DNA of 64,000 nt. It comes from Chloroflexota bacterium (GTDB lineage: Bacteria > Chloroflexota > UBA11872). The stretch is from positions 29,384-93,383 of the forward strand of contig JAPOXD010000045.1 of assembly GCA_026707285.1 (NCBI GenBank), in the 5' to 3' direction. How positions within the stretch are numbered: the first letter of the stretch is position 1; every line of letters begins with the position of its first letter. Below are positions 1,517 to 26,263 of this stretch, one piece after another. The notes under the pieces are model-generated. The model did not search any database. It saw only the letters and a program-made list of their open reading frames with translations, and was not told where the DNA came from. Position numbers and translations under genes: made by a program.

Positions 1517-2863
1517 ATGATTCGTCCGTTGCTCGAGCGACTGGAGGCGCGGGCGTCGGCGGGCCGACCCGTGACGGTGGCGCTGGCGGGCGCCGGTCGG
1601 TTTGGGACGAGCATCGCGGCGCAGATTGCGCAGATGGACGGCCTGCGGCTCGCGGCGGTGGCCGATCCAAACGCGCAAAACGGCGCGGAGGCCTTGCGCG
1701 CCGCCGGCTGGGCGGACGACCAGTTGCAGCGCTGCGAGAGCCCGGTCGCCGCGCAGGCGGCCGTTGAAGCGGGCAACGCCGCGCTGGCGCCCGACGCTGA
1801 CGCGTTGGCCTCCGCGCCCGTCGAGGTGTTCGTGGACGCGACCGGCATCCCGGAGGTGGCTGCCCACAACGCCTGGGCGGCGTTGCGCGGAGGCCGCCAC
1901 GTCGTCATGGTGACGGTCGAGGCCGATGTGAGCTGCGGCTGGGCCTTGGCGCGGGAGGCGCGGCGGCAGGGCGTGGTCTACACGCTTGCCGCCGGCGACC
2001 AGCCAATCGCCATCATGGAGCTGTTCGACTGGGCCGTCGCGTTGGGTCTGGAAACCGTGGCCGTGGGGCGCGGGACGCGGCTCTACCCGCACGACCGCCA
2101 CGGGGACGCCGACCAGGCCCTGGCGAGGCTCGGCTACGACGCGGAGACGGCGGGCCGTCTCCGACTGAACGCGCAGATGTACAACTCGTTCCGTGACGGC
2201 ACCAAGTCTCAGATCGAGATGTGCGCCGTGTCCAACATGACGGGTCTGCCGCCGGACCGCCGCGGCATGCACGAGCCGTCGGCCGGCCTCAACGAGCTGG
2301 CCGACCTGTTCGCGCCGCGCGACGCCGGCGGTCTGCTGCACCGGACGGGCGTGGTCGATCTGGCGAACGCCGTGGCGCCCGACGGTGCGTCCGAGATTCC
2401 GGAGCACATCGCCACCGGCGTGTGGGCCGTGGTCACGTGCGACGACGAGCGCGTGCGCGAGGACTTGCGCATTCACGGCACGCGCGTCTCGCGCGATGGC
2501 GATCGCACGCTGCTGTTTCGCGAGTACCACCTGTGCGGCGTGGAGACGCCGCTGAGCATTGCCCAGGCGGCGCTGCTGGGCGCGGCGTCGGGCGCGCCGC
2601 GCGAGACGCCGACCTCCGAGGTGCTGGCATATGCCAAGCGCGACCTCCAGCCGGGCGACACGCTGGACGGCTCCGGCGGGCGGCTGGTCTACGGCCTGAT
2701 CGACCGGGCGGAAGCGGTGAGCGGCGGCGTGCTGCCGCTGGGACTCGCCTACGGGGCCGTGGTGCGCGAGCCCGTGGCCGCGGATCAGCCAATTCCTGTG
2801 GATGCGGTACGCGTGGTCCAGGACTCATTCGTGGCACGGCTGCGCCAGGAGGCCGGCGCATAG
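1517..2863 (+). CDS. NAD(P)-binding oxidoreductase with C-terminal SAF domain (homoserine-dehydrogenase-like, COG4091-type)
   Basis: 448-aa ORF. N-terminal Rossmann motif (VALAGAGRFGTSIA). The overall pattern resembles predicted homoserine dehydrogenase / SAF-domain proteins (GDQP..IMEL..W...G, C-terminal LQPGDTLDGSGG). Family assignment is from memory of the family, not a search. Confidence 0.6.
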   Translation: MIRPLLERLEARASAGRPVTVALAGAGRFGTSIAAQIAQMDGLRLAAVADPNAQNGAEALRAAGWADDQLQRCESPVAAQAAVEAGNAALAPDADALASAPVEVFVDATGIPEVAAHNAWAALRGGRHVVMVTVEADVSCGWALAREARRQGVVYTLAAGDQPIAIMELFDWAVALGLETVAVGRGTRLYPHDRHGDADQALARLGYDAETAGRLRLNAQMYNSFRDGTKSQIEMCAVSNMTGLPPDRRGMHEPSAGLNELADLFAPRDAGGLLHRTGVVDLANAVAPDGASEIPEHIATGVWAVVTCDDERVREDLRIHGTRVSRDGDRTLLFREYHLCGVETPLSIAQAALLGAASGAPRETPTSEVLAYAKRDLQPGDTLDGSGGRLVYGLIDRAEAVSGGVLPLGLAYGAVVREPVAADQPIPVDAVRVVQDSFVARLRQEAGA

Positions 2864-5139
2864 ACCGCGATGTCGTCGTTGCGCCAGATTCGAGTCCACT
2901 CCGCGTTCGGCGCCCTCGGCGGCTCGACCGACGCCGGCAGGACCGCCAGATTGGGCGCCTGCTCGCCCGGCGGCTCCACCGTCCACGGCGTGGGCGCCTG
3001 CAGGTGTAAGAGTTGCGTGTCCACGGCGCCGGTCAGGTGCGTGTGGGACAGCACCGAGGCGACGCGTAGTCCGTCCAACCAGCCGAGCTCGGGGGCGAGA
3101 TGCACGATCGTTGACGACGGCGCCGCGCGCAGCGCTTCGTATGTCTCGGGATGAGGCTCGACATCGAGCGTCAGGAACGCCTGCCTGACGCGGTAGAGCG
3201 CTTCGGCGCCATCTCGCGCCAGGAGCTCGAACATCCCGGGATCGGCCAACCAGCGCTGCGCCTGCCGCGGCAGCGCAGCCGCCCAATCGTCCGTGGCGTG
3301 GACGTATTCGATGCCCAGCCTCCGGATGGCGTCGGGCTCCAGGTAGCCGACGGCGTCCAGGTACTCCGACCCAGTGAAGAAGATCAGGTGGGACAGATTT
3401 GAGAACCCTGCGCTACCGGGCCGGCCGGTTGCCAGGGACACCGCCCAATAGGGCCACTTGGGCGTCAGCACGCGGGCGTCCAACGGGATGTGGTCGCGGA
3501 TATAGCTCGCCAGCCGGTCCGACATCGCCGGCATTTGAAATCGCCGCATCGACGCCGCCGGGCGCTTGTATTCCAGGTGCTTCGCTGCCCATCCGGCATT
3601 GGCCAGCTGCACACCGCTTCCAACCGCCGTCGCGAGACTGCGCACCGGCCCCGCAATGGTCGGCCAGCCCACGAGGGAGACGATGAGGAGTGGGGCGGCA
3701 AGTCGCCATCGTGTTGACTCCAGGCTTGTTAGCCGGGCGGCCAGCGCGAGCAGCAGCGCCACGAGCGCCAGATTGCGCGCGTGCCCTGCCAGGCGACTGA
3801 GCACCCACGGCGCCGGCGGATAGCTGAGAATCAGCCAGGCCATCACCAGCAGTGCGGCCCCCGCGGCCAGTGCCACGACAAGACGATCGCGGCGCGCCAG
3901 GACAACGGCGACACCCGCCAAGACCGCGGGACCAACGCCCAGCACGCCGATACTCCCCGAACGCGCGTCGAACGCCCCAAGCGCCTGCCAACGCGTTCCA
4001 TTGAGATCCCACGACAGGCCGAGGCCGTTGGCAGGTCCACCGTCAAGGAGCCCGGTGAGGGCGCCCCCGCCGAGGAGCATTAGCGCTACCGCAACCCCGA
4101 GCCCAGCGCCCAGTCGCAGCACTTCGTCGCCCCCGGGCCGCTCTCGCACGATGTGGACGGCCGCCAGAGCGGCCCACAGGACAACCACGACGGGTGCGAG
4201 CGAAGTCACGAGGATGCCGAGGAAGCCGACGATCGCCCCGAGCGTCAGCACGCCGGCCCACGTCGCGCGCTCAGGTCGGGCGGCGTGCTCCAGCACCACG
4301 AAAGTGAGCGCGTATCCCAGGGTGAAGGCCGGCGTCCAGATGTCGTGCAGCGCTGCCGATTCCAACGGCCACGACGGCCCGAGCGACGGCCAGTAGACAT
4401 CGGCCAGTGCTTCCCAAGAGCCGGCCGCCGGGGCGCCAGTCGGCACTGGCAGCCGCAGAATGCCGCCGCCCAGGTTGGTCCACGTCCAGGCGCCGGCCGT
4501 GAGCAGCAGCGGAGCAACGACCAGCGCCACTCGCCACGACCCGCGCCGCAACAGCCCCGTCGCCACCACCAAGGCGAAGGATGTCCAGGCGTAGGCACCC
4601 AGCAGCTCTTGCACGAACGCCAGGTCGGGCCCGATCGGCGGCGTCAGCAGGCCGACCAGCAGGTCCGCGCCGTGGTGATAGCGCACGAGATACCCGGGAT
4701 TCCAGGGCAATTCGGGAGGAAATCCACCCGCCCGCATCCATGCGGCCAAGCCCAGGTGCAGCGTTGGGTCCGGGCTTTCGAGCAGCTGCCGGCTGGCGAG
4801 CGTCAGCCACAGCAGGGCTAGAACGACAGCGGTGAATCCCGCCGCCACCCACGGGCGCGGCCAGACGAAACGACCCGCGCGCCACGCAAGCACCGCGCCC
4901 AGAACCAGCGTGGCTCCCCAGCCGACGGCAGCGCCGGCGAGCCCCGGCAGGACGTAGAGGGCAAAGTTTGTGATCAATCCCCACAGCGCGAGGCCGACCA
5001 CCAGGCCCTGGGCAAGGGCCGCCCGCGCATCGGCCTGCCGCAGGGCCACGCGGACGACGACATAGCCCACCGCGGCCAGCGCCGCGAGCTCCGCCGCCAG
5101 GAGCAAGAGCCCCGGGATGACGGCCGGATCAACGATCAT
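2785..5139 (-). CDS. array paralog P1: polytopic membrane protein, C-terminally truncated copy (784 aa)
   Basis: ORF 2785..5160. Start moved to ATG 5139 (MIVDPAVIPG...) by alignment with the other copies. It has the full membrane core and the first part of the soluble region. Homology to the other copies stops at ...IWRNDDIAVYAP (about 2854-2862). The last 22 codons are unrelated read-through that overlaps the 3' end of the convergent gene 1517..2863. The terminal ~150-aa domain of the other copies is missing. Confidence 0.75.
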   Translation of the reverse strand: MIVDPAVIPGLLLLAAELAALAAVGYVVVRVALRQADARAALAQGLVVGLALWGLITNFALYVLPGLAGAAVGWGATLVLGAVLAWRAGRFVWPRPWVAAGFTAVVLALLWLTLASRQLLESPDPTLHLGLAAWMRAGGFPPELPWNPGYLVRYHHGADLLVGLLTPPIGPDLAFVQELLGAYAWTSFALVVATGLLRRGSWRVALVVAPLLLTAGAWTWTNLGGGILRLPVPTGAPAAGSWEALADVYWPSLGPSWPLESAALHDIWTPAFTLGYALTFVVLEHAARPERATWAGVLTLGAIVGFLGILVTSLAPVVVVLWAALAAVHIVRERPGGDEVLRLGAGLGVAVALMLLGGGALTGLLDGGPANGLGLSWDLNGTRWQALGAFDARSGSIGVLGVGPAVLAGVAVVLARRDRLVVALAAGAALLVMAWLILSYPPAPWVLSRLAGHARNLALVALLLALAARLTSLESTRWRLAAPLLIVSLVGWPTIAGPVRSLATAVGSGVQLANAGWAAKHLEYKRPAASMRRFQMPAMSDRLASYIRDHIPLDARVLTPKWPYWAVSLATGRPGSAGFSNLSHLIFFTGSEYLDAVGYLEPDAIRRLGIEYVHATDDWAAALPRQAQRWLADPGMFELLARDGAEALYRVRQAFLTLDVEPHPETYEALRAAPSSTIVHLAPELGWLDGLRVASVLSHTHLTGAVDTQLLHLQAPTPWTVEPPGEQAPNLAVLPASVEPPRAPNAEWTRIWRNDDIAVYAPASWRSRATNESWTTRTASTGIG

Positions 5140-5273
5140 TCGCCCACTCTCACGCGACACGCCGGCGCCTGCGGCAGGTCACATGGTGCTCCGCGATTGC
5201 GCCGGCGGCAGGTGGAACCGCCGCATGTGCGCCTTGCTAGTCCGATTCGACGCAGACACGGCGTGACGGAACG

Positions 5274-8114
5274 CTACGGCAGCGATTCGCCGCGGACGTT
5301 TTCGTGCACTGAGTAGGTGACCTGACCGTCCTCGGCGATTTCGATCCGCATCACCGGGATGAAGGCAGCCTCCCGCCATTGGTCGGGCCGCCACTCGTGC
5401 TGCAGGCGGAGCGCCAAGACCCAAGTCCCCGCACCCAAGCCGCCCTCCGATGTGTCGAGCGGTACCAAGGCCCCGCGGTCGTTCCGCACGGCCAGGGTGG
5501 CCGCCGCCGCATCGAATTCGTACGAGTGCGTGCTGGTGACCGAATTCGATGAAAGCAGCCCGGCAAACCACTTCGCGGTCGCCGGTCCGCGGCCGCGGTC
5601 GAGAATGGCGGTTGGAATCTCCCACGGCCAAGTGTCCACCCGCACCACCACCCAATCCTGCCCGGTCCATCGCTCCGGCGCTTGGTTGTCGAACGTGGCG
5701 GTAAAGGCGATGCGTCTGTTGCCAAGGTGGGCGTCGACAATCGCGACGGCTACCGGCGGCGTTTCGAGGGCCACGCGGGGCGGCGTTATCGGTGCAACAG
5801 CCCCGCCGGGCGCGTAGACGGCGACCGCCTCGTTGCGCCAGACGGGCTGCCGGGCGCTGGGGGGAAACGCCCACGTCCACAGCTCGACGGACGCCGGGAG
5901 GACGATGAGATCCGGCACGCCCTCGCCAGGCGGCGCCACCGTCCAGGGCACGGGCGTACGCGCGTGCAGCCGCAGCGTGTTGATGGCGCCCACGAGTTGG
6001 GCGTGAGGCAGGACCGACGCGACGCGAAGCCGGTCCAGCCAGTTGGCCTGCGGAGCCAGGTAGACCGTTGTCGATGGCGGCACCGACCGCAGCGCTTCAA
6101 ACGACTCGGGATGCGGCGCCACGTCGAGCTCGAGGAATGCCGGCTGAATGCGATAGAACGCCTCGTCGCCGTCGCGGTAGAGAAGCTCGAACAGGCTCGG
6201 ATCCGCCAGCCACTCGCGGGCCCGAGCCGGCAGCAAATCTACCCAGGAATCGGTGGCGTGAACGTATTCGAGGCCCAAGCGCCGGATGGCGGCCGGCTCC
6301 AGGTAGTGGCGGGCGTCCCAATACTCCGGGCCCGGGTGGTAGATCAGGTAGATCACATCGGCGAAGCCCGCGTTGTTCGGGCGGCCGGTGCCGAGGAACA
6401 CGTTCCAATAGGGCCACTCGGTGGCGAGCACGCGTGCATCCACAGCCGTGTGGTCCCGGATGTAGTCGGCCACGGGCCCCGTCAAGGCCCGCAACTGAAA
6501 CCGGCGCATGGGAACCGTCTCGCCTTGGTCGATCAGTTCGTGTTGCACCCACCGGGCATTGGCCAGTTGCACGCCATTGCCGATTGCCAGGCCCAGACTG
6601 CGCGCGGGCGTCACGACCGTGGGCCAGGTGATCAGCGCGACCAGCACCGCAGCGGCGGCGTAGCGCCAGCGTCCGACTGGGAGGCTGGAAAGGCGCGAAC
6701 TCATCGCGAGCACCAGCGCCACGAGCGAAAGGTTGCGGGCATGTCCCGCGATGCGGTAGGTATCCCAAGGCGCTGGCTGATAGGTGAGCGCGAGCGAAAG
6801 CAGCACCAGCAATCCGGCGCACGCCGCCAGCGTCACCACCAGCCGGTCGCGCCGCGCCAACACCACCGCCGCGCCACCAAGCGCCACCGGCCCCAAGCCC
6901 AGCCGGCCCAGGCCGCCGGGACGCACGTCGAACGAGCCCAGCGCCTGCCAGTGCACCGACTCAATGCCCTGCGCCAGCGTCAGGCCCAACTGTGGCGATC
7001 CGTCCAAGACTCCCGTGAAGGCGCCGCCGCCGCCGAGAACCAGCAGTCCACCCAGGATCGGACCGGCGCCCAGTCGGAGTGCCGCCGGCGCCGGCGGCTC
7101 GGTCCGGCGAGCTCGCAGGAAGTGCATCGCGGCCAGTCCGGCCCAAGCGATCAGGACCACCGGAACGAGGGAGGTCGAGAGGACACCCAGGAAGCCGACC
7201 AATCCCGCGAGCGTCAGCGTCTCTCCCCAGGACCAGCGTTCATGACGCGCCGCGAAGTTCAGCACCACGAAAGCCAGGGCGTATCCTAGCGGAAATCCGG
7301 GCTTCCAAATGTCGGCCAACACGTGTGAGAACGTCGCGCTCGCGGACAGCTCGACGTGCGGCCAATAGACGTCGGTCAGCGAGGCCCGAAGGCCGGCCTC
7401 AGGCAGTCCAGCTGGCAGGGGCAGCTGCAAAACCCCTGCGCCGACGCTGCTGAAGGTCCAGAGTCCGCTGCTCAGCATGAGCGGGGCCGTGACGATCACG
7501 CCGAAGAGCGATGCCCGCTGCAGCAGCGCGGTCGTCACGATCAGGACCAGGGTTGTCCAGGCATAGGCGCCCAAGAGCTCCGAGACGAACGCGAGGTCCG
7601 GTCCGAACGGCGGCGCCAGCAAACCCACGAGGAGATCGGTGCCGTGGTGATAGCGGATGAGCGTGCCCGGGTGCCACGGCAACTCCGGCGGGAATCCACC
7701 CGCGCGGATCGTGGCGGCTAGCCCCAAATGGATCGGCGGATCGGGAATCAGCATCAGCTGGCGGCTGGCGAGCGCCGCCCACATGAGCGCCAGGACCGCG
7801 ACGGCGAAGCCCGCGGCCACCCGCGGCCGCGGACGTAGTATGGCGCGAGGCGCCCGCCACGCCAGGGCGGCACCCAGGGTGAGCGTGACGCTCCAGCCGA
7901 CGGCCGACCCCGCGAGGCCGGGAACCACGTACATGACGAAGTTGGTCATCAGGCCCCAGAGGGCGAGCCCGACCACCAGACCTTGGGCGAGAGCAACGCG
8001 CTCATCGGGTTGCCGCAGCACCACTCGCACGACGACGTAGCCCACCGCCGCTAGGGCGATCAGCTCCGCCGCCAGCAGCAGAAGGCCCGGAATCACGGTC
8101 GGATCGACGGTCAT
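5274..8114 (-). CDS. array paralog P2: polytopic membrane protein with large C-terminal soluble domain (946 aa, A-type C-terminus)
   Basis: ORF 5274..8129. Start moved to ATG 8114 (MTVDPTVIPG...). ~13-14 hydrophobic segments in the first ~560 aa. Conserved motifs FPPE, RYHHG, GLLAPPFGPDLAF, GHARN, TGRPNNAGF, YLEPAAIRRLGLEYVHATD. Shares a 675-bp identical tract with P9. Confidence 0.85.
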   Translation of the reverse strand: MTVDPTVIPGLLLLAAELIALAAVGYVVVRVVLRQPDERVALAQGLVVGLALWGLMTNFVMYVVPGLAGSAVGWSVTLTLGAALAWRAPRAILRPRPRVAAGFAVAVLALMWAALASRQLMLIPDPPIHLGLAATIRAGGFPPELPWHPGTLIRYHHGTDLLVGLLAPPFGPDLAFVSELLGAYAWTTLVLIVTTALLQRASLFGVIVTAPLMLSSGLWTFSSVGAGVLQLPLPAGLPEAGLRASLTDVYWPHVELSASATFSHVLADIWKPGFPLGYALAFVVLNFAARHERWSWGETLTLAGLVGFLGVLSTSLVPVVLIAWAGLAAMHFLRARRTEPPAPAALRLGAGPILGGLLVLGGGGAFTGVLDGSPQLGLTLAQGIESVHWQALGSFDVRPGGLGRLGLGPVALGGAAVVLARRDRLVVTLAACAGLLVLLSLALTYQPAPWDTYRIAGHARNLSLVALVLAMSSRLSSLPVGRWRYAAAAVLVALITWPTVVTPARSLGLAIGNGVQLANARWVQHELIDQGETVPMRRFQLRALTGPVADYIRDHTAVDARVLATEWPYWNVFLGTGRPNNAGFADVIYLIYHPGPEYWDARHYLEPAAIRRLGLEYVHATDSWVDLLPARAREWLADPSLFELLYRDGDEAFYRIQPAFLELDVAPHPESFEALRSVPPSTTVYLAPQANWLDRLRVASVLPHAQLVGAINTLRLHARTPVPWTVAPPGEGVPDLIVLPASVELWTWAFPPSARQPVWRNEAVAVYAPGGAVAPITPPRVALETPPVAVAIVDAHLGNRRIAFTATFDNQAPERWTGQDWVVVRVDTWPWEIPTAILDRGRGPATAKWFAGLLSSNSVTSTHSYEFDAAAATLAVRNDRGALVPLDTSEGGLGAGTWVLALRLQHEWRPDQWREAAFIPVMRIEIAEDGQVTYSVHENVRGESLP

Positions 8115-8291
8115 GCCCGCGCGCTCCACGACACGTCGCGGTGTGGTCCTTCGGTCGCGCCGACTAGACCGCGCGTCGCGAGGCGTGGCATCGGTTTAGC
8201 GCGGGTGAGGCTGGGAGTTTCACCCATCGCGTGCACGCGGAAAGCCCTACGGACGTCCGTCGCTGGCATGTCGACATCTTGCCCGACCTGG

Positions 8292-11153
8292 CTAGGGCGC
8301 CGTCGTCCTTGGGAGCGACGCCCCACCGAGCGCATCTTCAGACGCGGCGTACGAGATATCGCCAGTATCCGAGACCGTGATCTCCAGCACCGGAACGACG
8401 GCGACATCCCGCCAAACGTTCGGCTGCCACTCGTGCCGCAGGCGCATGGCCAACACCCAAGTCCCCGCGCCCAAGCCGCCCTCCGATGTGTCGAGCGGCA
8501 CCAAGGCCCCAGCCTCATTGCGCACCGCGAGGCGCGCCGTCGGCACGTCGAATTCATAGGTGTGCGACTCACTCGCCGAAGCGGACGAGATCAGGCCGCC
8601 GAACCATTTGGCAATCTCGGGCCCACGGTCGCGGCTGTGGCCGCTAAATCCGACCGGAAGCGCCAGCGGCGTCGCGTCGACCTCCACAATCACCCAGTCC
8701 TGGCCCGTCCAACGCTCCGGCGCCCGATTGTCAAGGGTGGCCGCAAAGATAATTCGGCCAGCGTCGATACGTGCATCGGATACCTCGACGGACACCGGCG
8801 ACGCTTCGAGCACCCCCCGGGGCGGCGTGATCGGCGCCACGGCGCCGTTGGGCGCGTAGACGGCAACCTCCTCGTTTTGCCAAATGGGCTGCCGACCGCC
8901 GGGTGGAAACATCCACATCCACGGTTCGACGGACGCCGGGAGGACAACCAGGTCGGGGAAGTCCTCGCCCAGCGGTTCGACCGTCCACGGCTCCGACGTG
9001 CGCACGTGCAGCGGCAGTGCGTGGATGGCGCCGACCAGCCGCGTGTGCAGCAGCGTCGACGCGACACGGAGTCGGTCCACCCAAATGGTTTGCGGAGTCA
9101 GGTACACGGTGGTCGCCGGCGGCACCGAGCGAAGCGCTTCAAAAGTCTCGGGATGCGGCGCGACATCGAGTTCGAGAAACGCCGGCCGAATGCGATAGAG
9201 CGCCTCGTCGTCTTCGCGGATCAACAGCTCGAACATGCTGGGATCCTCCAGCCACGTCTTCGACCGCGTGGGTAGGCCCGCCGCCCAGATGTCCGTCGCA
9301 AGAACGTATTCGAGACCCAGTCGCCGGATGGCCGCCGGCTCGAGGTAGTGGCGGGCGTCCCAATACTCCGGTCCCTGGTGGTAGTTCAAGTGGATCACGT
9401 CGGCGAAACCTGCGTTGTTCGGCCGGCCGGTGCCGAGAAACACGTTCCAATAGGGCCACTCGGTGGCGAGCACGCGGGAATCCGCGGTCGTGTGGTCCCG
9501 GATATAGTCCGCCACGGGTCCCGTCAAGGCCCGCAGCTGAAACCGGCGCAAGGGCACGTCCACGCCCTGGTCTCGCAGCTCTGTTTGCACCCACCGGGCA
9601 TTGGCCAGCTGCACGCCGTGGCCGATTGCGAGGCCGAGATTGCGCGCGGGTGTCATCGCCGTTGGCCAGACGATGAGACCCACCAGCAGCGCGCCTATAC
9701 CGACGCGCCAACGTCCGGGCGGAAGGCCGGCGAGGCGGGATCCGAGCGCCAACAGCAGCGCCACGAGCGACAGGTTGCGGGCATGCCCCGCCAGACGGTT
9801 GAGATCCCAGGGCGCCGGCGGATACGTCACCGCGAGCCAGACCAGCACCAGCAGGCCGGCGCATGCTGCCAGCGTCACCACCAGCCGGTCGCGCCGCGCG
9901 AGCGCCACCGCCAGGCCCGAAAGCGCCACCGGCCCCAAGCCCAGCAGGCCCAGCCCGCCGGGACGCGCCTCGAACGATCCCAGCGCTCGCCAGTGCTCGG
10001 GTTCAAGGCTCTGCGCCAGGATCAAGGTTGACGGGCGCGAACCGTCCAAGATTCCGGTGAACGCGCCGCCGCCGCCGAGCAGCAACAGCCCGGCAAGCAC
10101 GGGACCCGCGCCCAAGCGCAGCGCCGCCCGCGCCGCTGGCTCGGTCCTGCGAGCACCGAAAACGTGCACCAGCGCCAGACTGGCCCACACAACCAGCACC
10201 ACCGGCGTGAGCGTGATGGACAGCAGGCCCAGGAAGCCGACCAAGCCGGCCTGCGTCAGCGCAGCTCGCCACGACCAGCGCTGACAGCTCGCTGCGTGCT
10301 GTAGCACCACGAATGCCACGGCGTATCCCAATGGATATGACGGTTTCCAGATGTCAGCCAATGCATTTGACCTATCCGTAATCGGGGGCAGCTCGACGTA
10401 CGGCCAATAGATGTCGCCGAGCGACGCCCGCAGTCCCGCTTCGGGCAGCCCGGCCGGAATGGGCAGCTGCAACACGCCGGGTCCAACGTTGGTGAGGGTC
10501 CAAAGACCGCTGCTGAGCATGAGCGGGACCGTGACAACGAGTCCGACGAGCGATGCCCGCTGCAACACCGCCGTAGCCACGATCAGGATCAGGCTTGTCC
10601 AGGCAAAGGCGCCCAGCAATTCGGAGACGAATGCGAGATCCGGTCCGAACGGCGGCGCCAGAAGGCCGACGAGAAGATCCCTCCCGTGGTGATAGCGAAC
10701 GAGGATGCCCGCGTTCCAGGGCGACTCGGGGGGAAAGCCGCCAGCTCTGATGGTGGCGGCCAGTCCGAGGTGAGTTTGCGGGTCGGCAATCACCATCAGT
10801 TGGCGGCTGGCAAGCGCGACCCACAGCAGCGCCAGCACGGCCACGGCGAATCCCGCGGCCACGCGCGGCCGCGGGCCTATGGGGCGAGGCGCGCGCCACG
10901 CCAGGACAGCGCCCAGGCCGACCGTGACGCCCCAGCCGATGAGGGCCCCCGCGAGGCCTGGAACCACGTACATGACAAAGTTGACGATCACGCCCCAGAG
11001 CGCGAGTCCGACTACGAGTCCCTGGGCTAAGGCCATCCGGTCGTCGTCTTGTCGCAAAACCACCCGCACGACGACGTAGCCGACCGCAGCGAGCGCAATG
11101 AACTCTGCCGCCAGGAGCAGCAAGCCCGGGATCACCGCCGGATCGAGGGTCAA
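8292..11153 (-). CDS. array paralog P3 (953 aa, A-type C-terminus)
   Basis: ORF 8292..11210. Likely start is TTG 11153 ((M)TLDPAVIPG...) by alignment with the other copies, with GGTGGAGG about 10 nt upstream. The start is uncertain within 11153-11210. Confidence 0.8.
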   Translation of the reverse strand: MTLDPAVIPGLLLLAAEFIALAAVGYVVVRVVLRQDDDRMALAQGLVVGLALWGVIVNFVMYVVPGLAGALIGWGVTVGLGAVLAWRAPRPIGPRPRVAAGFAVAVLALLWVALASRQLMVIADPQTHLGLAATIRAGGFPPESPWNAGILVRYHHGRDLLVGLLAPPFGPDLAFVSELLGAFAWTSLILIVATAVLQRASLVGLVVTVPLMLSSGLWTLTNVGPGVLQLPIPAGLPEAGLRASLGDIYWPYVELPPITDRSNALADIWKPSYPLGYAVAFVVLQHAASCQRWSWRAALTQAGLVGFLGLLSITLTPVVLVVWASLALVHVFGARRTEPAARAALRLGAGPVLAGLLLLGGGGAFTGILDGSRPSTLILAQSLEPEHWRALGSFEARPGGLGLLGLGPVALSGLAVALARRDRLVVTLAACAGLLVLVWLAVTYPPAPWDLNRLAGHARNLSLVALLLALGSRLAGLPPGRWRVGIGALLVGLIVWPTAMTPARNLGLAIGHGVQLANARWVQTELRDQGVDVPLRRFQLRALTGPVADYIRDHTTADSRVLATEWPYWNVFLGTGRPNNAGFADVIHLNYHQGPEYWDARHYLEPAAIRRLGLEYVLATDIWAAGLPTRSKTWLEDPSMFELLIREDDEALYRIRPAFLELDVAPHPETFEALRSVPPATTVYLTPQTIWVDRLRVASTLLHTRLVGAIHALPLHVRTSEPWTVEPLGEDFPDLVVLPASVEPWMWMFPPGGRQPIWQNEEVAVYAPNGAVAPITPPRGVLEASPVSVEVSDARIDAGRIIFAATLDNRAPERWTGQDWVIVEVDATPLALPVGFSGHSRDRGPEIAKWFGGLISSASASESHTYEFDVPTARLAVRNEAGALVPLDTSEGGLGAGTWVLAMRLRHEWQPNVWRDVAVVPVLEITVSDTGDISYAASEDALGGASLPRTTAP

Positions 11154-11331
11154 GTCCGCGGCCTCCACCTCGCGTCGACCGGGGACACTTGTGCCGCCGT
11201 AGCCGAGCAAGGCTCGGCCAACGGAAACGCACCATCAGCCACGGTGGCGGCCCTGATAGCCTCCCAAGCTCGCCCGCCGCCGATTGGAGTGTCGATCGTC
11301 CGAGGCATGGCGCTCATCTTGCCCGACTTGT

Positions 11332-14205
11332 CTACGGCGTGGCTGGAGTTCCGGGCTGCACCGTATCCGCGCGCACGTCGTCGAAGACCGCGAACACAAC
11401 CTCACCGGCTTCGGAGAGTGTGAATCGGAGCACTGGAATGAACGCCTCGTCACGCCAAGCGCCAGGCCGCCACTCGTGCCGCAGCCGGATCGCCAACACC
11501 CAAGAGCCCGCGCCCAGGTCGCCGTCGGATGCTGAGACCGGCACATAGGCCCCAGCGTCGTTGCGTACCGCCAAGCGCGCGGTCGGCACGTCGAATTCAT
11601 ACGTGTGCCGAGCGGTCGCCGAACCCGCCGAGAGCAAGCCGCCGATCCATTTGGCCACTTCGGGTCCGCGTCCACCGCCCATGAATCTGGCGGGCAGCGG
11701 CCACGGTCCATCGTCCAGCTCGACGATGACCCAGTCTTGGCCCGTCCAGCGGTCCGGCGCGTGCTCGGTGAACGCCGCATGGAAGATGAGGCGTCCGCGA
11801 TCGATGCGCGGCTCTGTCACTTGGACTGTCACGGGCGGCTCTCGCACCGGCGGTAGCGGCGCAATGGGCGCCCCGGCTCCATCCGGCGCATAGATCGAAA
11901 TCTCGTCGTTCGACCAGATTGGGCGTCGGCCAGCTGAGGGTAGAAACGCCTGGACCCACAAGTCGAAGGATGTGGGCAGTACGACGAGATCCGGCACGCG
12001 CTCCGCAAGGGGCAGCACCGCCCACGGGACGGGCGAGCGGGCGAACAGGAGCTCGGTGCGAACCGGGCCGAACAACTGCGCGTGCGACAGCGCCGAAGAG
12101 ACTCGGAGCCTGGTCATCCAGTGGACATGTGGGGTTAGATACACCGTGGTCGATGCGGGAACGGTTCGGAGCGCCTCGAACGATTCAGGATGCGGGGGAA
12201 CGTCGAGTTCGAAGAATGCCGGCCGCACAAGGTAAAGCGCCTCTACGCCGTCGCGCACCAAGAGTTGAAACAGGCCGGGATCGGCCAGCCAGCGTTGCGC
12301 CCGAGCGGGCAAGCCGGCCACCCAGTCATCCGTCGCATAGACGTAGTCGATCTCCAGCCGCCGGATCGCGGCCGGTTCGAGATAGCCGAGGGCATCGAAA
12401 TACTCCGGTCCCTGGTGATAGATCTGGTGGACGACGCCGGCGAATCCGGCGGCGTTGGGGCGGCCGGTGGCGAGGAATACGCGCCAATAGGGGGGCGGCT
12501 CACCGGCGAGCACGCGCGCGTGGGTGGCCGTGTGGTCCCGGATGTACGTAGCCACGCGGTCGGACAGGGCCGGCATCGGAGTGCGCCGCGCAAGCGTCTC
12601 GGGTTCGGCTTGGCGCGGATCCGGCGCGAGCGCCCCGGCATTGGCCAGTTCAATGCCGTTGCCGAGCGCGAGGCCGGCATGCCGCACGGGTTCCACCACC
12701 CTCGGCCAGGCGATGAGCCCCACAAGGAACACGCCCACCGCAAAGCGCCGGCGCCCAGACCACAACTGAGGCAGACGGGTGGCGAGCGCCAGCAACAGAC
12801 TCACCAGCGCAAAGTTTCGGGCGTGCCCAGCCAGGCGGTTCACGTCCCAGGGTGCGAGCGGATAGCTCACCAGCAGCCACCCCAGCGCCAGCAGTCCCAC
12901 GCCTACTGCCAGTGCCAGCACGAGCCCGTTGCGCCGGTCGAGCAGGACGGCGACGCCCGCCAGCGCCACTGGACCGATGCCGAGCAGGGCCACACCCCCG
13001 GGCAGAGGTTCGAACACTCCGAGCAGCAACCATCCCTCTGGATGGCCATGCCAACCAAGCAAGAGCTCGGGGGGCGACGAGGCATCTAGAAAACCGGTGA
13101 AAAGGCCGCCGCCAGCGAGGAGTAGCAGCACGGCCAGCGCCAGTCCTGCGACCGACCGCATGGCCGAACCCAATGCCGCGCGATCCCGCTGCGACCGCAC
13201 GAGCCGCAACGCCGCCGTGCCTCCCCACACGGCACCCACCGCCGGCACGAGCGTGGTAACCAGCAAGCCCAGGAATCCGACCAGCCCGCCGAGGGTGAGA
13301 ACGGCAGGCCACGACCGGTCTTCTGCGCGCGCCACACGCTCGAACACGACAAGCGCCAGCGCATAACCCAGGGTGAATTCGGGTTTCCAGATGTCGGGCA
13401 CGATCGGTGCGGGAAAGGTCGCGTCCAGCCCGACCAACGGCCAGTAGATCTCGCTCAGTGACGCGCGCAGACCCGCCGCCGGCAGCCCTGCTGGAACGGG
13501 TATCTGCAAAACTCCGCCACCCATTCCCTCCCACTCCCACTCGCCGGTGGTCCAGACGCCTATCGTCAGCAGGAGGGGGGCGAGGATTAGGGCGACCACC
13601 CACGATCCGCGCTGTGCGATGAGTGACACGGCCGCCAACACGTAGCTGACCCAGGCGTAGACACCCAGCAGTTCCGACACGAACGCCAAGTTTGGCCCGA
13701 AGGGCGGCATCAGCAGCCCGACCATCAGTGAGGGGCCGTGGTGATAGCGCAGCGGCGCCCCCGGGCTCCACGGCAGCTCCGGCGGAAAAACCCCGGCCCG
13801 AATCGCAGCCGCCAAGCCCAGGTGGATCGGCATGTCGGGAATCGGCAAGAGTTGTCGACTGGCGAGCCCAAGCAGGAAGAGCGCCAAAACGACGCCGACG
13901 AATGCCGCAACCGTGCGGGGTGGCAGAAGGATTTGCTCGCGCGCGCGCCAGGCCAAGACCGCGCCTAGCGTGAGGATGCCCCCCCACCCCACGGCCGCGC
14001 CCGCGAGCCCGGGCACGACGTATTGCACGACGTTGACCACCAAACCCCAGAGCACCAGGCCGACCACGAGACCCTGGGCCAGCGCCACGCGGTCGTCGTC
14101 CTGCCGCAGCGCGACCCGCGCCACCACGAAGCCCACGGCGGCAAGCGCGATGAACTCGGCCGCCAGGAGAAGCAGCCCGGGAATGACTGTTGGGTCAACC
14201 CTCAT
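11332..14205 (-). CDS. array paralog P4 (957 aa, A-type C-terminus)
   Basis: ORF 11332..14205, ATG start (MRVDPTVIPG...). Same motif set and architecture as P2. Confidence 0.85.
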   Translation of the reverse strand: MRVDPTVIPGLLLLAAEFIALAAVGFVVARVALRQDDDRVALAQGLVVGLVLWGLVVNVVQYVVPGLAGAAVGWGGILTLGAVLAWRAREQILLPPRTVAAFVGVVLALFLLGLASRQLLPIPDMPIHLGLAAAIRAGVFPPELPWSPGAPLRYHHGPSLMVGLLMPPFGPNLAFVSELLGVYAWVSYVLAAVSLIAQRGSWVVALILAPLLLTIGVWTTGEWEWEGMGGGVLQIPVPAGLPAAGLRASLSEIYWPLVGLDATFPAPIVPDIWKPEFTLGYALALVVFERVARAEDRSWPAVLTLGGLVGFLGLLVTTLVPAVGAVWGGTAALRLVRSQRDRAALGSAMRSVAGLALAVLLLLAGGGLFTGFLDASSPPELLLGWHGHPEGWLLLGVFEPLPGGVALLGIGPVALAGVAVLLDRRNGLVLALAVGVGLLALGWLLVSYPLAPWDVNRLAGHARNFALVSLLLALATRLPQLWSGRRRFAVGVFLVGLIAWPRVVEPVRHAGLALGNGIELANAGALAPDPRQAEPETLARRTPMPALSDRVATYIRDHTATHARVLAGEPPPYWRVFLATGRPNAAGFAGVVHQIYHQGPEYFDALGYLEPAAIRRLEIDYVYATDDWVAGLPARAQRWLADPGLFQLLVRDGVEALYLVRPAFFELDVPPHPESFEALRTVPASTTVYLTPHVHWMTRLRVSSALSHAQLFGPVRTELLFARSPVPWAVLPLAERVPDLVVLPTSFDLWVQAFLPSAGRRPIWSNDEISIYAPDGAGAPIAPLPPVREPPVTVQVTEPRIDRGRLIFHAAFTEHAPDRWTGQDWVIVELDDGPWPLPARFMGGGRGPEVAKWIGGLLSAGSATARHTYEFDVPTARLAVRNDAGAYVPVSASDGDLGAGSWVLAIRLRHEWRPGAWRDEAFIPVLRFTLSEAGEVVFAVFDDVRADTVQPGTPATP

Positions 14206-14240
14206 GAGCCAGGTCGCAATCGCAACCGCTGCCCCTTCAC

Positions 14241-17096
14241 CTAGGGCGACGCCGCTTGGCCACCGACGAGTTCGTCAAACGGCTCATACGTGATCGTTCC
14301 ATCCCCGGACACTCGCACGCGAAGCACTGGGATAACGGCGGCGTCGCGCCACTGGTTCGGCTGGAATTCGTGCCGCAGGCGAAGCGCCAGCGTGTAACCG
14401 CCCGGTCCCAGATTCGCTTCGGAGGATCCCAAGGGCGTGAAATCGCCGCCGTCATTGCGCACGGACAACTCGGGCGCCCGCGCGTCGAACCGATATGTGT
14501 GCGACGTCGCCACACCGGCCCGCGAAAGCAGCCCCTGAACCCACAGGGCGGTTCTTGGGTCGCGGCTGTGGCGAAAGACCTCGGTCGGAATGGCCCACGG
14601 CGATCGATCGCCGACAATGAGGATCCAATCTTGCCCTGTCCACGGCTGCGGGCCGCCCTCGTCAAATGCAGCCGTGAATTCGATGGCTCCTCCAGAAATC
14701 CGCACGCCGGTTACTTCTACACGAATAGGCGGTGGGTCGCCCGCCGCCGGATCGGTCGGGCTCGGGCCTTCCAAAATCCGCGGCACTGCGCCGGTGGGAG
14801 CGTAAACCGCAACGTCGTCGCGCCACCAGATCGGCGAGCGTGCCCTGGGCGGGAGCATCCAGGGATCCGCTCCGGTCGGCAAGACGACAAGGTCGGGAAG
14901 CTCGTCGGTCAGCGGCTCGACTTGCCACTTCGCGGGCGGAATGACATGCAGGAACAGCGGGTCGAGCTCTCCGACCAGCCGAGCATGCGACAGGGCGGCG
15001 GCGACGAGCAATGTGTCGTACTCCCGGGGCGGCGCCACCAGATAGACCGTGGCCGACGATGGCACGGCCTTCCTCAGAGCCTCGAAGGACGCCGGATGCG
15101 GTTCAACGTCGAGGCTCGTAAACGCTTGCCGCACTCGATAGAGCGCTTGGCGCTTTTCTTGGACCAGCGGCTCGAAAAACCGAGGGTTTTCCAGCCACGC
15201 CCGCGACCGCGGCGGCAGCGCCGCCACCCAATCATCCGTCGCGTGGATGTATTCGATGCCCATCCGCCGGATGGCGGCCGGCTCGAGGAAGTTGAGCGCA
15301 TCCAGATGCTCGGGGCCGGAATGGTGGGTGTGGTAGGCATGCCCGATAAAGCCTGAGGCATTCGGTCGGCCCGTGTGCACGCTCAGGTCCCAGGCATTCT
15401 CCAAAGACGTGAATACGCGTGCGTCGATTGGCGTGCGGTCGCGGACGTAGTCGGCCACCGCCGGGGCGACCTCGGGCATCGCGTACCGCAGGTCGTCGTT
15501 CTCCGTCGACCGCGAGGCGGCCGCTCCCGCAGTGCGCGCGGCGTTCGCGATGTCTACCCCGTTGGCTAGCGACATGCCGAGGATGCGGGCAGGCCGAGCG
15601 ATCGTGGGCCAGACCAGCGCTAGCATCAGCAGCGTCGCGGCGGCATAGCGCCAGCGGGGCTGCAGCTGCGCGAGACCACCGCCAATCGCCAGAACCAAGG
15701 CCACAAGCGCGAAGTAGCGGGCATGCCCGGCGATTCGGTTCATATTCCAGGGCGCTGGCGGATAGTCCAGCAGAATCCAAGCCAGCGTGAACATGCAGGC
15801 CCCGAGCGACAGCGCCAGGATCAGGCGATCGCGCCTTCCCAGCGCCGCCGCGACGCCGGCGACGACGAGCGGCCCGATCTCGGCGAACAGACCCGACCCG
15901 CTCTCTCCGCGGGACAGTCGGCCAAGGGAGACACCAATATCGTCAAGCGTGCGCGGCGCGAAGGCCACGCTCCCGGTCGATTGACCTTCGAGGACACCGG
16001 AAAGCCCGCCGCCACCGCCGATCAAAAGGACTGCGGCGAGCGCCAACGCCGTGCCCGATCGCAGCGCCGCGCTGCCCAGATCGGCGCGGGATCGTCGCAG
16101 CCGCACCAGGTGAGCAGCCTCGATGCCGGTCCATAGCACGAGCACCACCGGCACGACGCCCGTCTGTGCCAGCCCCAAGAAACCAACCAACGCCCCGATC
16201 GTTAGGCGTGGGATCCAGCCACTAGGGCAAGCGCAAATGGCTCGCTCGAGCACCACGAGCGACAGGGCGTAGGCGAAGGTAAACGTGGGGAGCCAAATGT
16301 CGGGCAGGGCGCCCGACGGCAAGCCCATATTTGGCGGCGGGGGCGGCCAATACGCTTCCCCAAGGGACGCCACGGCCGCGGAAGACAGTTCCGCGGGAAT
16401 TGGAGCCAGCACCGCCAGGACACTTCGCATGCCGACCCATGACCAGGCGCCGGCGGTGATGAGCAGCGGGGCGATAGCAACCACGGCCAACCAGCCGCCG
16501 CGACGTCGGAGCGAGGTAACCACGATCAAGGCGAGGCTGGTCCAGAAATACGCCCCGAGAAGCTCGGAAACAAATGCCAGGTCGGGGCCTTGGGGCGGCG
16601 CCAGCAGGCCGGTCATCATGTCCACGCCGTAGTGGTAGCGGAGGGGAATTCCCGGATTCCACGAGAGTTCCGGCGGGAACGCGCCGGACCTGATGGCGGC
16701 GCCGACTCCGAGGGCTTGATAGGGATCGACGATCGCCATCGTCTGGCGGCTGGCCATCGCCACCCAGAACATGGCCACGGCCGCAACGGCGAATCCCACG
16801 GCCACCCGGGGCCGGGGGCGAATGGGGCGCGGCGTGCGCCAGACGAGAACGGCGCCCAGGACAAGAACTACGCCCCAGCCGACGAGAGCTCCGCCAAGAC
16901 CCGGAACCACATGGAGGATGAAGCTGACGACCAGGCCCCACAGCGCCGGGCCAATCACCATGCCCTGCGCCAACGCCATCAGATCGTCCGTCTGCCGCAG
17001 CGCCACCCGAGCCACCACATAGCCCAGGGCGGCCAGCACGGCCAGTTCGGCCAGCAGCAGCAGCAAGCCTGGAACGACCGCTGGGTCGAGGGTCAT
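14241..17096 (-). CDS. array paralog P5 (951 aa, B-type C-terminus)
   Basis: ORF 14241..17096, ATG start (MTLDPAVVPG...). Same membrane core. The C-terminal ~330 aa are of the second subtype (AVPSSATVYLVAPP..., PIWW, IEFTAAFDE..., SHTYRFDARAPELSVRND). Confidence 0.85.
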   Translation of the reverse strand: MTLDPAVVPGLLLLLAELAVLAALGYVVARVALRQTDDLMALAQGMVIGPALWGLVVSFILHVVPGLGGALVGWGVVLVLGAVLVWRTPRPIRPRPRVAVGFAVAAVAMFWVAMASRQTMAIVDPYQALGVGAAIRSGAFPPELSWNPGIPLRYHYGVDMMTGLLAPPQGPDLAFVSELLGAYFWTSLALIVVTSLRRRGGWLAVVAIAPLLITAGAWSWVGMRSVLAVLAPIPAELSSAAVASLGEAYWPPPPPNMGLPSGALPDIWLPTFTFAYALSLVVLERAICACPSGWIPRLTIGALVGFLGLAQTGVVPVVLVLWTGIEAAHLVRLRRSRADLGSAALRSGTALALAAVLLIGGGGGLSGVLEGQSTGSVAFAPRTLDDIGVSLGRLSRGESGSGLFAEIGPLVVAGVAAALGRRDRLILALSLGACMFTLAWILLDYPPAPWNMNRIAGHARYFALVALVLAIGGGLAQLQPRWRYAAATLLMLALVWPTIARPARILGMSLANGVDIANAARTAGAAASRSTENDDLRYAMPEVAPAVADYVRDRTPIDARVFTSLENAWDLSVHTGRPNASGFIGHAYHTHHSGPEHLDALNFLEPAAIRRMGIEYIHATDDWVAALPPRSRAWLENPRFFEPLVQEKRQALYRVRQAFTSLDVEPHPASFEALRKAVPSSATVYLVAPPREYDTLLVAAALSHARLVGELDPLFLHVIPPAKWQVEPLTDELPDLVVLPTGADPWMLPPRARSPIWWRDDVAVYAPTGAVPRILEGPSPTDPAAGDPPPIRVEVTGVRISGGAIEFTAAFDEGGPQPWTGQDWILIVGDRSPWAIPTEVFRHSRDPRTALWVQGLLSRAGVATSHTYRFDARAPELSVRNDGGDFTPLGSSEANLGPGGYTLALRLRHEFQPNQWRDAAVIPVLRVRVSGDGTITYEPFDELVGGQAASP

Positions 17097-17219
17097 TTCC
17101 CGCCCTCACCCAATGTGTTCACCCCCGCCGTCCAAGCCACTCTCCCTGGGCGTTTGCGCGGTCAACTCCCACATCATCACATCGGGGCACCCGCGCCCCG
17201 AGCGGGACGTCCGGTCGGC

Positions 17220-20069: not shown

Positions 20070-20236
20070 TTAGGCAGGCGCCGAACGACCGCCGTCGCTC
20101 CTCGTCACGGGCTCAATCAATTGGGCCGAGCGTTCGATCCGTCACATCCTGTCAGGTGCTGGCAGGGCTGCCGCGCACATCGTCACGCGTGAGCATCGCG
20201 CCCGCGGGCACAACAGAAACGCGGCGACGCCGAAGC

Positions 20237-23083: not shown

Positions 23084-23285
23084 TGAGGCAAGCTCCGCAT
23101 GAACGCCAGAGGTTTGCGCCACAGGCTCATGTCAAATCGGGAGTATATCCATGCAGTCACTTCGCCCCGTGCATCCGCGCGGGTGACCGTCGCGTCCTGC
23201 ATGGCGCCAACGCAGCCGCTGGGCGCGTCCTCACACGCGAGCATCACGCCCGTTGCGCTCAATTTGATCACGGCGACGCCAGAGT

Positions 23286-26141: not shown

Positions 26142-26263
26142 CGGCCCAGCCTCGGCGCCACGGTCCAACCATTTCGAGCCTTAAGCTCTTCCCGGCGCGG
26201 TCGTTGTCACGCGGGAGCGTGGCGCCAATCTTGCCCGAGTCACACACGGACAGTTTTGCAGGC

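Follow-up and report, generated by a model that had tools for sequence, protein, structure and literature searches.

Ectopic gene conversion is known between bacterial paralogs, as in the homogenisation of tufA and tufB in Salmonella and the transfer of sequence from pilS to pilE in Neisseria. A second process that can leave paralogs identical belongs to the assembler: in metaSPAdes, the bulges of a diverged repeat copy are projected, and the collapsed repeat is resolved by strain-paths (PMC5411777). In the present study, we analysed a window of 64,000 nucleotides from a Chloroflexota bacterium (assembly GCA_026707285.1, contig JAPOXD010000045.1, positions 29,384 to 93,383), in which two genes of a tandem array, P2 and P9, share a base-perfect tract of 675 bp. 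A first-pass annotation had read this tract as recent gene conversion.

The locus resembles both systems in part. As in ectopic conversion, synonymous divergence is low over a block of about 1.1 kb in genes otherwise 69-76% identical, and the phylogenetic position of this block, within which P9 falls among P2 orthologs, differs from that of the flanks. Unlike the bacterial conversion systems, the locus holds one old event, with 5-13% divergence accumulated since. There is no sign of programmed or high-frequency conversion, and the locus has no silent cassettes but nine full-length ORFs. The likeness to the consensus masking of metaSPAdes (PMC5411777, Fig. 5) is that diverged copies form bulges between shared k-mers which would be projected to one path, and that the collapsed repeat is still traversed, giving the same consensus at both places. 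In that paper the diverged copy comes from a rare strain, whereas here the copies are paralogs of one genome at equal coverage; the local anchors also fit k=55 exactly, and two samples give two consensus mosaics. We conclude, with a probability of roughly 85%, that the perfect identity is a consensus artefact of metagenome assembly in which two 95%-identical copies were merged. Because the assembler most likely merged the copies into one consensus, the tract is a poor argument for a recent conversion event.

Materials and Methods

Repeats were detected as exact k-mer diagonals in place of a BLAST self-comparison, which overlooks the tract when a percent-identity filter is set, as its alignments span whole genes and fall under the filter. 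A repeat search of the window reported the nine-copy family and not the 675-bp tract as such. The three assemblies compared belong to three ENA analyses, and the two metaSPAdes scaffolds among them come from different samples. The assembler of the third, MEGAHIT, is taken from its contig name alone (k141_19067). By default, metaSPAdes uses k of 21, 33 and 55, and MEGAHIT goes up to 141 (PMC9784204). A 246-aa tract peptide from the unmerged P2 (P2 as it stands in k141_19067) served as query in a protein search aimed at fragments from per-run (Logan) assemblies of the samples.

Results

The window carries a nine-gene array, in which the following features were compared.

2785..29104, minus strand: nine tandem paralogs, P1 to P9, with 48-77% amino-acid identity
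5274..8129, minus strand: P2, a 951-aa ORF (called product 946 aa, from 8114), a predicted GT-C-like membrane protein
26264..29104, minus strand: P9, 946 aa, the first array gene on the coding strand
6573..7247, minus strand: P2 copy of the perfect tract, P2 residues 290-514, about TM8-TM14
27563..28237, minus strand: P9 copy of the perfect tract, which matches P9 of the MEGAHIT-named contig at the protein level

In a comparison at a fixed offset of 20,990, P2 and P9 matched at 675 of 675 bases across the tract. The nearest mismatches below the tract were at 6572, 6570 and 6567, and those above it were at 7248, 7249 and 7258, so the base-perfect tract and the edges described for it in the first-pass annotation were reproduced. 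Its description of the surroundings was accurate as well: antisense ORFs of 153 aa each are present at 6784..7245 and 27774..28235, six paralogs (P3 to P8) sit between the partners, and the tract product runs from RHERWSWGETL to SLGLAIGNG, spanning helices at about residues 296-513 of the AlphaFold model. The runner-up exact match across the whole window is 54 bp, again between P2 and P9, and no other pair in the array goes beyond about 38 bp. Even given 95.3% identity, 675 consecutive matches have a chance probability of 6e-15. In a GENECONV-like permutation test with the P2 of the window, the run, which covers 511 polymorphic sites, reached p <= 0.0005; with the unmerged P2 the test likewise gave p <= 0.0005. 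The identity of the tract far exceeds chance. This holds for the sequence as it stands; the DNA of the organism is a separate matter.

Judging from a predicted structure, the array appears to encode membrane glycosyltransferases of the GT-C fold, from Chloroflexota and so far uncharacterised. When the AlphaFold model of P2 (pLDDT 72.6) was compared with the PDB by Foldseek, the best 15 matches were all GT-C enzymes (E 1.5e-6 to 8e-3), including AftA (8if8), DPY19 (7zlh), STT3 (8age, 6c26 and 6s7o) and AftD (6wby). The model shares with them a membrane module of many helices and, C-terminal to it, a soluble domain rich in beta structure, but its TM-scores are low (0.2-0.4). The Pfam search gave no family, and all Pfam and NCBIfam models stayed below threshold: the N-terminal match to TIGR03662 (Chlor_Arch_YYY domain) was weak, at 20.7 bits against a cut-off of 300, and DUF6798 was weakly matched by 6 of 33 members. 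A sequence-profile search of the PDB returned no matches. Residue D37, just past the first helix, is nearly invariant.

Independent assemblies of the locus were then available for comparison. The window is 100% identical to SHAF22-1_SAMEA7723697_METAG-scaffold_49, a record whose naming scheme is documented for metaSPAdes scaffolds (PMC9259500) and whose pipeline is given as "SPAdes v3.11-3.15 in metagenomic mode" (PMC11701688); for these reasons, the window is a metaSPAdes scaffold of the mOTUs-db/OMD pipeline. Contig k141_19067 (ERZ27276916) aligned without gaps to positions 1-18114 of the window with 33 mismatches. All but one of these (32/33) fall at 6636-7179, and at all 32 sites, which separate P2 from P9 in the MEGAHIT-named assembly, the P2 of the window has the P9 base. 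The remaining 17.4 kb hold a single mismatch, at position 2729. The contig, which also encodes a P9 identical to that of the window (compared as protein), represents the same population, and as an independent assembly at larger k it keeps the two copies distinct. Because of the protein-level match, 27563..28237 of the window can be regarded as the native P9 haplotype. The other metaSPAdes scaffold, ROBB21-1_SAMN13943207_scaffold_71, agreed with the window at every base of about 39 kb apart from five sites at 7129-7179 and their five P9 partners, where it has the k141-P2 allele in P2 and P9 alike. In this scaffold P2 equals P9 again over exactly 6573-7247, but as a different mosaic. The perfect tract was therefore not reproducible across assemblies, being absent in k141_19067 and of another consensus in ROBB21. 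Among 5.8 billion proteins, the search with the 246-aa peptide found only distant fragments of at most 78% identity. The scaffold-derived P2 protein, with 16 P9-type residues, is also present in NCBI and NCBI nr.

The arrangement of shared k-mers was examined in the unmerged locus. Over its 64 kb, repeated 55-mers are confined to four runs, of which the first begins at 6573 and the last stops at 7247. These anchors and the bulges between them, none of which has a strand, are as follows.

6573..6635: anchor 1, a 63-bp exact run in unmerged P2 and P9, the low-coordinate limit of the tract
6636..6796: bulge 1, where P2 of the MEGAHIT-named contig differs from P9 at 9 sites and both metaSPAdes scaffolds have the P9 allele
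6797..6860: anchor 2, a 64-bp run common to P2 and P9
6861..7040: bulge 2, where 18 sites differ and both metaSPAdes scaffolds have the P9 allele
7041..7128: anchor 3, an 88-bp run common to P2 and P9, the sole repeated 77-mer stretch
7129..7179: bulge 3, where 5 sites differ; both copies carry the P9 allele in the window and the P2 allele in ROBB21
7180..7247: anchor 4, a 68-bp run common to P2 and P9, the high-coordinate limit of the tract

The first two bulges are 161 and 180 bp long, with 6-10% divergence. The ROBB21 mosaic changes haplotype at anchor 3, and relative to the window bulge 3 is exchanged whole. Beyond anchor 4, the next shared run is of 54 bp (7442-7495), just below k=55, and at k >= 99 no k-mer is common to the unmerged P2 and P9. 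The limits of the tract are the outermost shared 55-mers, and 55 is the largest default k of metaSPAdes. This match of boundaries is suggestive and not decisive alone, because a real conversion over all 32 sites would also end at 6573 and 7247.

The divergence profile between the unmerged P2 and P9 points to an exchange wider than the perfect tract and much older. It was located together with a smaller patch.

About 6440..7560, minus strand (P2 coordinates; partner about 27430-28550): older P2-to-P9 exchange, from the identity profile with unmerged P2
6513..6542, minus strand: P6-like patch of 30 bp in P2, with HELIDQGETV in P2 resembling AELIDQGATV in P6

Identity is 95.3% in the core, 83-87% in the shoulders and 69-76% in the rest of the gene. 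With the independently assembled P2, P2 and P9 differ at synonymous sites by 0.00-0.22 over about 6500-7500 and by about 0.3-0.8 (mostly 0.4-0.7) elsewhere. In the same region, the remaining paralog pairs are mostly at 0.4-0.6, with P2-P3 and P3-P9 dipping to about 0.2 near 6950. Here P9 also clusters with the P2 orthologs found in other genomes. P9 is 92% identical to Q2, a P2 ortholog from a long-read genome, in the tract and 68-77% identical in the flanks, and the inferred tract topology is (Q2,(P9 tract,(R2,P2))). These comparisons show that P2 and P9 did exchange sequence, but only an old event can be demonstrated. Site patterns date this exchange (about 1.1 kb, P2 into P9) to before the divergence from a relative with 93% identity over the array. 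The patch at 6513..6542 lies near the low-coordinate edge of the tract; P9, P3 and Q2 read TELRDxGVDV there, unlike P2, and it may be a small, older P6-to-P2 conversion.

Among related Chloroflexota, the array is conserved yet varies in composition. A P9 ortholog was not found in the long-read relative GCA_965243625.1; in the long-read relative the array has nine genes, and its exact repeats do not exceed 44 bp. In six other related loci (each about 15-23 kb), paralogs of the family share at most 58 bp exactly. One locus (L011) has an exact repeat of 189 bp, but between an unrelated gene pair. A further contig (L005, ctg470647l), which was reached via a 180-aa member of the P9 protein cluster, proved to be a more distant, rearranged relative with 79-92% identity and was uninformative on this strain.

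Discussion

The claim of gene conversion in the first-pass annotation thus divides into two parts. Exchange between P2 and P9 is supported by the synonymous profile and by phylogenetic placement; its recency is not, as an independent assembly did not reproduce the perfect identity. Nor is the further statement borne out that the array is still exchanging sequence: the MEGAHIT-named contig has 32 differences in the tract. The same annotation had named assembly chimerism as a reason to abandon the conversion reading, and the comparison of assemblies points toward chimerism.

The merging of the two copies could have proceeded as follows. The organism itself would have P2 and P9 genes about 95% identical in their central parts, with 32 differences per 675 bp, a legacy of the older exchange in which about 1.1 kb of P9 was replaced by P2-lineage sequence. 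With k=55, the copies would meet in the de Bruijn graph at the four anchors, with three bulges between them. These bulges would be projected onto a single path by metaSPAdes, which is designed to do so, and the collapsed repeat would then be resolved with contigs built before masking, so that the scaffold traverses one consensus twice and P2 equals P9 from the first anchor to the last. The branch that survives in each bulge would differ by sample. We infer this stepwise behaviour of the assembler on the present reads, while the assembly differences, the anchors, the synonymous profile and the tract phylogeny were observed.

The merger presupposes that P2 of k141_19067 is the true P2, and the orthologs speak for this. 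At the 32 sites, Q2 has the k141-P2 allele at 17, the P9 allele at 15 and neither at 0, and a contig of the 93%-identical relative, with a name in long-read style, agrees with k141-P2 at 26. In related genomes, the eleven homologs closest to P2 keep the P2 residue at, e.g., L404, W440, P446 and N453, sites at which the P2 of the window has P9-specific residues. The k141 haplotype thus appears, from its relatives, to be genuine P2 sequence, and its origin as an error or from a foreign strain is rejected on this support. A related possibility is that the MEGAHIT-named contig is wrong in that its P2 tract is chimeric with the P2 of a related strain, the copies in the genome being truly identical. 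Related strains do occur in metagenomes, and the relative 93% identical over the array is known from another data set; but the k141 P2 tract is 4.6% off that relative and so is not its sequence, the flanks pass into the sequence of the window without any mismatch, and five of the k141 alleles recur in the ROBB21 scaffold. Moreover, a de Bruijn contig at k=141 cannot hold an exact 675-bp repeat twice, so truly identical copies would be expected to break it, and k141_19067 spans the tract. We regard such a chimera as very improbable. That strong purifying selection on a conserved transmembrane core produced the identity is hardly credible: the region is membrane-embedded and partly well conserved across the family, but its synonymous sites are perfectly identical too, other paralog pairs reach the synonymous differences given above, and P2-P3 and P3-P9 are just about 76% identical there. 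Low synonymous divergence within the block therefore excludes selection as its cause, and this explanation is refuted by the synonymous-site profile.

There is more to be said for a real and very recent ectopic conversion between P2 and P9, which we nevertheless consider unlikely. The tract is exact in the given sequence, the same pair has an older exchange across the same region, and 95% identity with runs up to 88 bp is a plausible substrate for homologous recombination, in which the identical runs of 63-88 bp could seed RecA-type events. As samples and ENA analyses differ, real population differences are also possible in principle. Under such conversion, P9 would have been copied over 544-675 bp of P2 in the SAMEA7723697 population; in the SAMN13943207 population P9 would have replaced P2 at 6636-7040 and P2 would have replaced P9 at the equivalents of 7129-7179; the k141_19067 population would be unconverted, and the array would exchange sequence far faster than point mutations arise. 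No fewer than three independent events, running in both directions, would then be needed in populations differing by 0-1 base per 18-39 kb, with each endpoint landing within one of the four shared runs of at least 55 bp. The events would also have to homogenise both copies fully in both metaSPAdes assemblies, and neither in the non-SPAdes assembly. A true 675-bp exact repeat would, in addition, presumably break a short-read scaffold in most cases, but both scaffolds cross both copies. It is decidedly unlikely that the three assemblies represent real population differences and that P2 and P9 repeatedly swap the TM8-TM14 segment in both directions at a rate much greater than that of point mutation. 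If true, this would be cassette-like shuffling of the membrane core of surface-glycan glycosyltransferases in an otherwise clonal population.

Conclusion

Merging by the assembler remains our preferred reading of the perfect tract, and it carries a caution: in a short-read metagenome-assembled genome, the assembler can create a base-perfect tract between paralogs. A statement of ongoing concerted evolution from such assemblies requires read-level or long-read support, and the k-mer anchor test offers a cheap screen, asking whether the limits of a tract equal the outermost shared k-mers at the k of the assembler. As biology the finding carries little weight, since tandem paralogs commonly show old gene conversions. 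The nine-gene array of unannotated GT-C-like membrane proteins may merit a study of its own.

Results

Nine tandem paralogous genes, P1 to P9, for membrane proteins of typically ~950 aa lie in the window, whose G+C content is 67.7%. Their products are 791-972 aa long, with pairwise identities of 44-77% for protein and 56-80% for DNA.

P1, 2785-5160, minus strand, ORF
P2, 5274-8129, minus strand, ORF
P3, 8292-11210, minus strand, ORF
P4, 11332-14205, minus strand, ORF
P5, 14241-17096, minus strand, ORF
P6, 17220-20069, minus strand, ORF
P7, 20237-23122, minus strand, ORF
P8, 23286-26168, minus strand, ORF
P9, 26264-29104, minus strand, ORF

P2 has its homologs in Chloroflexota metagenome-assembled genomes, where they are unnamed or labelled "hypothetical". 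No Pfam or NCBIfam model matched the family at threshold, the best family match being a weak N-terminal one to TIGR03662 (Chlor_Arch_YYY domain), which scored 20.7 bits where the cut-off is 300, and a PDB profile search found nothing. An AlphaFold2 model of P2, built on a 33-sequence alignment (pLDDT 72.6, pTM 0.61), has about 14 membrane helices to residue 513 and then a soluble alpha/beta and beta-sandwich region. When this model was compared with the PDB by Foldseek, all 15 top matches were GT-C glycosyltransferases (AftA, DPY19, STT3, AftD), with E-values of 1.5e-6 to 8e-3 and low TM-scores. The model suggests that P1-P9 may form an array of uncharacterised GT-C-like enzymes using lipid-linked sugar donors. 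P1 (791 aa) falls ~160 aa short of the other members in length; since the short form recurs in both other assemblies of the strain and in a long-read relative (784 and 797 aa), P1 is not obviously a pseudogene. Toxin-antitoxin-like small genes were seen upstream of the array (3861-4555 of L003/L004, about 34550-35244 of the window, and 3221-3954 of L013). In the window strain a PIN-domain gene is paired with one for a partner of 92 aa, and the long-read relative has DUF433, HicA and HicB genes in addition at the same place.

The perfect tract reported by the first-pass annotation is present in the given sequence. When the sequence is compared with itself at a constant offset of 20,990, 675/675 bases of 6573-7247 (P2) and 27563-28237 (P9) match. 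The nearest mismatches are 6572, 6570 and 6567 at the low-coordinate end and 7248, 7249 and 7258 at the high-coordinate end, and the cited antisense ORFs are found in the window. The tract encodes residues 290-514 of P2 and P9 (RHERWSWGETL to SLGLAIGNG), which in the P2 model make up the latter half of the membrane module; the extent proposed, TM8-TM14, is therefore about right. Chance is excluded, because the second-longest exact match within the window is 54 bp (again P2 against P9), 675 consecutive matches have a probability of 6e-15 even at 95% identity, and a GENECONV-like permutation test on the tract gave p <= 0.0005. For all other paralog pairs the longest exact match is ~38 bp.

By exact-sequence look-ups the strain was found in three assemblies. 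Assembly (a) is 100% identical to the window across the 22.8 kb compared and is therefore the window's own record. Below, haplotype a is the tract of P2 in (c) and haplotype b that of P9; they differ at 32 sites.

Table. Assemblies of the strain and haplotypes of the tract
(a) ENA ERZ23500222, SHAF22-1_SAMEA7723697_METAG-scaffold_49; 113,150 nt; P2 haplotype b; P9 haplotype b
(b) ENA ERZ23497053, ROBB21-1_SAMN13943207_METAG-scaffold_71; 132,465 nt; P2 b at 27 sites and a at 5; P9 the same mosaic as its P2
(c) ENA ERZ27276916, k141_19067; 125,849 nt; P2 haplotype a; P9 haplotype b (protein level only)

Assembly (c) aligns to 1-18114 of the window without gaps and with 33 mismatches, 32 of them at 6636-7179 and one at 2729; at 32/32 of the tract sites the window P2 has the P9 base. 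The P9 of (c), compared at the protein level only, is identical to that of the window. P2 and P9 of (c) are 95.3% identical over the tract, their longest common runs being 88, 68, 64 and 63 bp. Over ~39 kb, (b) differs from the window only at 7129, 7141, 7154, 7172 and 7179 and the five P9 equivalents, where both copies have the allele found in P2 of (c), and its P2 and P9 are identical over exactly 6573-7247. Thus, the three assemblies disagree inside the tract and otherwise only at 2729 within the compared stretches. This sole non-tract difference in 18 kb is G in the window and in (b), and A in (c). Either the sampled populations are nearly clonal or every assembly reports one dominant consensus.

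Haplotype a was compared with relatives. The long-read-style genome GCA_965243625.1, from a related species and with a contig of 3.19 Mb, carries a corresponding array, Q1-Q9. Its P2 ortholog Q2 (91% protein identity) has haplotype a at 17 of the 32 sites, b at 15 and neither at 0; therefore each difference arose by one change, in one or the other of two real lineages. Another relative, with 93% identity over the array, is represented by contig ctg491815l, whose name is of the long-read style; here 26/32 sites have the a allele. Eleven P2 homologs from related genomes, the best matches in the homolog search with P2, keep a residues, for example 404 L, 440 W, 446 P and 453 N, where the window P2 has the P9-specific R, S, Q and Y. 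Judged from these alignments, haplotype a, which the window lacks, is genuine P2 sequence. The P2 protein predicted from the window (P0123, from 5274-8114) is probably a P2/P9 chimera with 16 P9-type residues at positions 315-480, and a protein of identical sequence is on record in NCBI and in NCBI nr.

The locus was rebuilt with the P2 of (c), and all repeated k-mers in the 64 kb were listed. At k=55 repeats occur only in four runs and their P9 partners (6573-6635, 6797-6860, 7041-7128 and 7180-7247), at k=77 only 7041-7128 survives, and at k >= 99 no k-mer is shared within the rebuilt locus. The span from the first to the last of these anchors is exactly the 675-bp tract. The next P2/P9 run, 7442-7495, is 54 bp, 1 base below k=55. 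Relative to the window, one entire bulge (a stretch between anchors) is exchanged in the mosaic of (b), and the haplotype switch falls at the 88-bp anchor.

Table. DNA identity by region, with P2 unmerged
Tract, 6573-7247: P2-P9 95.3%; P9-Q2 92.0%; P9-P3 76%
5' shoulder, 7248-7560: P2-P9 87%; P9-Q2 84%; P9-P3 67%
Rest of gene: P2-P9 69-76%; P9-Q2 68-77%

Between the unmerged P2 and P9 the synonymous difference, as a proportion, is 0.00-0.22 at ~6500-7500, against ~0.3-0.8 (mostly 0.4-0.7) outside it. In the same interval the pairs P2-P3, P3-P9, P6-P8 and P2-P6 are mostly at 0.4-0.6, with a dip to ~0.2 near 6950 for P2-P3 and P3-P9. Because the identities of P9 to P2 and to Q2 peak in the tract, the centre of P9 is P2-lineage sequence, with P2 as donor and P9 as acceptor. 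The 32 sites comprise 16 that are P9-specific, 10 common to P2 and R2 (the P2 ortholog of the 93% relative), 5 P2-specific and 1 homoplasy, a pattern giving the topology (Q2,(P9 tract,(R2,P2))). The exchange is older than the split from the 93% relative.

Other possible signs of exchange were seen. A 30-bp patch of P2 (6513-6542) mismatches P9 at 14 bases. Its translation, HELIDQGETV, is close to AELIDQGATV of P6 and unlike the TELRDxGVDV of P9, P3, Q2 and Q3. The patch may stem from a small, old conversion of P2 by P6, and the pattern of identity suggests that R2 carries it as well. P1 (3746-3780) and P6 (18661-18695) share a 35-bp exact run, but the pair permutation p of ~0.004 is not significant once corrected for 36 pairs; for P4-P6 the permutation p is ~0.013. 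In a long-read-style MAG (L011, CBDBOH010000003.1), two adjacent genes of ~780 aa unrelated to the P family (2066-4408 and 4418-6769) have a 90-99% identical block at gene nucleotides 360-900, with a longest exact run of 189 bp, against 43-68% identity outside it. The block appears to be a true conversion tract, and the assembly in which it lies is less liable to collapse of k-mers.

Discussion

We consider the perfect tract to be a metagenome-assembly artefact, with a probability of about 0.85 judged from the assemblies and from documented assembler behaviour, and thus most likely absent from the genome itself. The "k141_" prefix of (c) matches the default contig naming of MEGAHIT, with a final k of 141. 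Names of the form "STUDY_SAMPLE_METAG-scaffold_N" denote metaSPAdes scaffolds of the Ocean Microbiomics and mOTUs-db pipeline (PMC9259500), which used "SPAdes v3.11-v3.15 in metagenomic mode" (PMC11701688). The default k values of metaSPAdes are 21, 33 and 55, and the default lists of both metaSPAdes and MEGAHIT have been given (PMC9784204). According to its authors, metaSPAdes masks such differences through bulge projection, for which its settings are more aggressive than those of isolate SPAdes, and a collapsed repeat is then resolved by use of the pre-masking contigs ("strain-paths"); Figure 5 of the metaSPAdes paper treats a diverged repeat copy in this way (PMC5411777). Since only four runs are shared at k=55, P2 and P9 would touch in the final graph at four anchors separated by three bulges of 9, 18 and 5 differing sites. 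Bulge projection would put one consensus into both copies, and strain-path resolution would let the scaffolds cross the 675-bp "repeat" twice, so that the documented behaviour could account for both features. With k=141 there would be no shared k-mer and the copies would stay separate. An artefact of this kind predicts the tract limits, the bulge-wise mosaic, the homogenised copies in the metaSPAdes assemblies and the unmerged third assembly.

The first-pass annotation had read the tract as recent P2/P9 gene conversion. That a conversion occurred is borne out by the synonymous drop and by the placement of the P9 tract with the P2 orthologs, but the event is old. A recent conversion, real in the sampled populations, is improbable, as it needs three or more events, running both ways, in populations differing at 0-1 base over 18-39 kb, with every endpoint inside a shared run of at least 55 bp and with full homogenisation confined to precisely the two metaSPAdes assemblies and missing from (c). 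The small remainder is left to other errors behind the perfect identity.

As the tract is probably artefactual, its interest is low. The array is conserved among related Chloroflexota MAGs, with variable membership. Q1-Q9 match P1, P2, P3, P4, P5, P6 and P8; none of them is orthologous to P7 or P9, in place of which that array has two other members. Therefore, the array gains and loses members over time.
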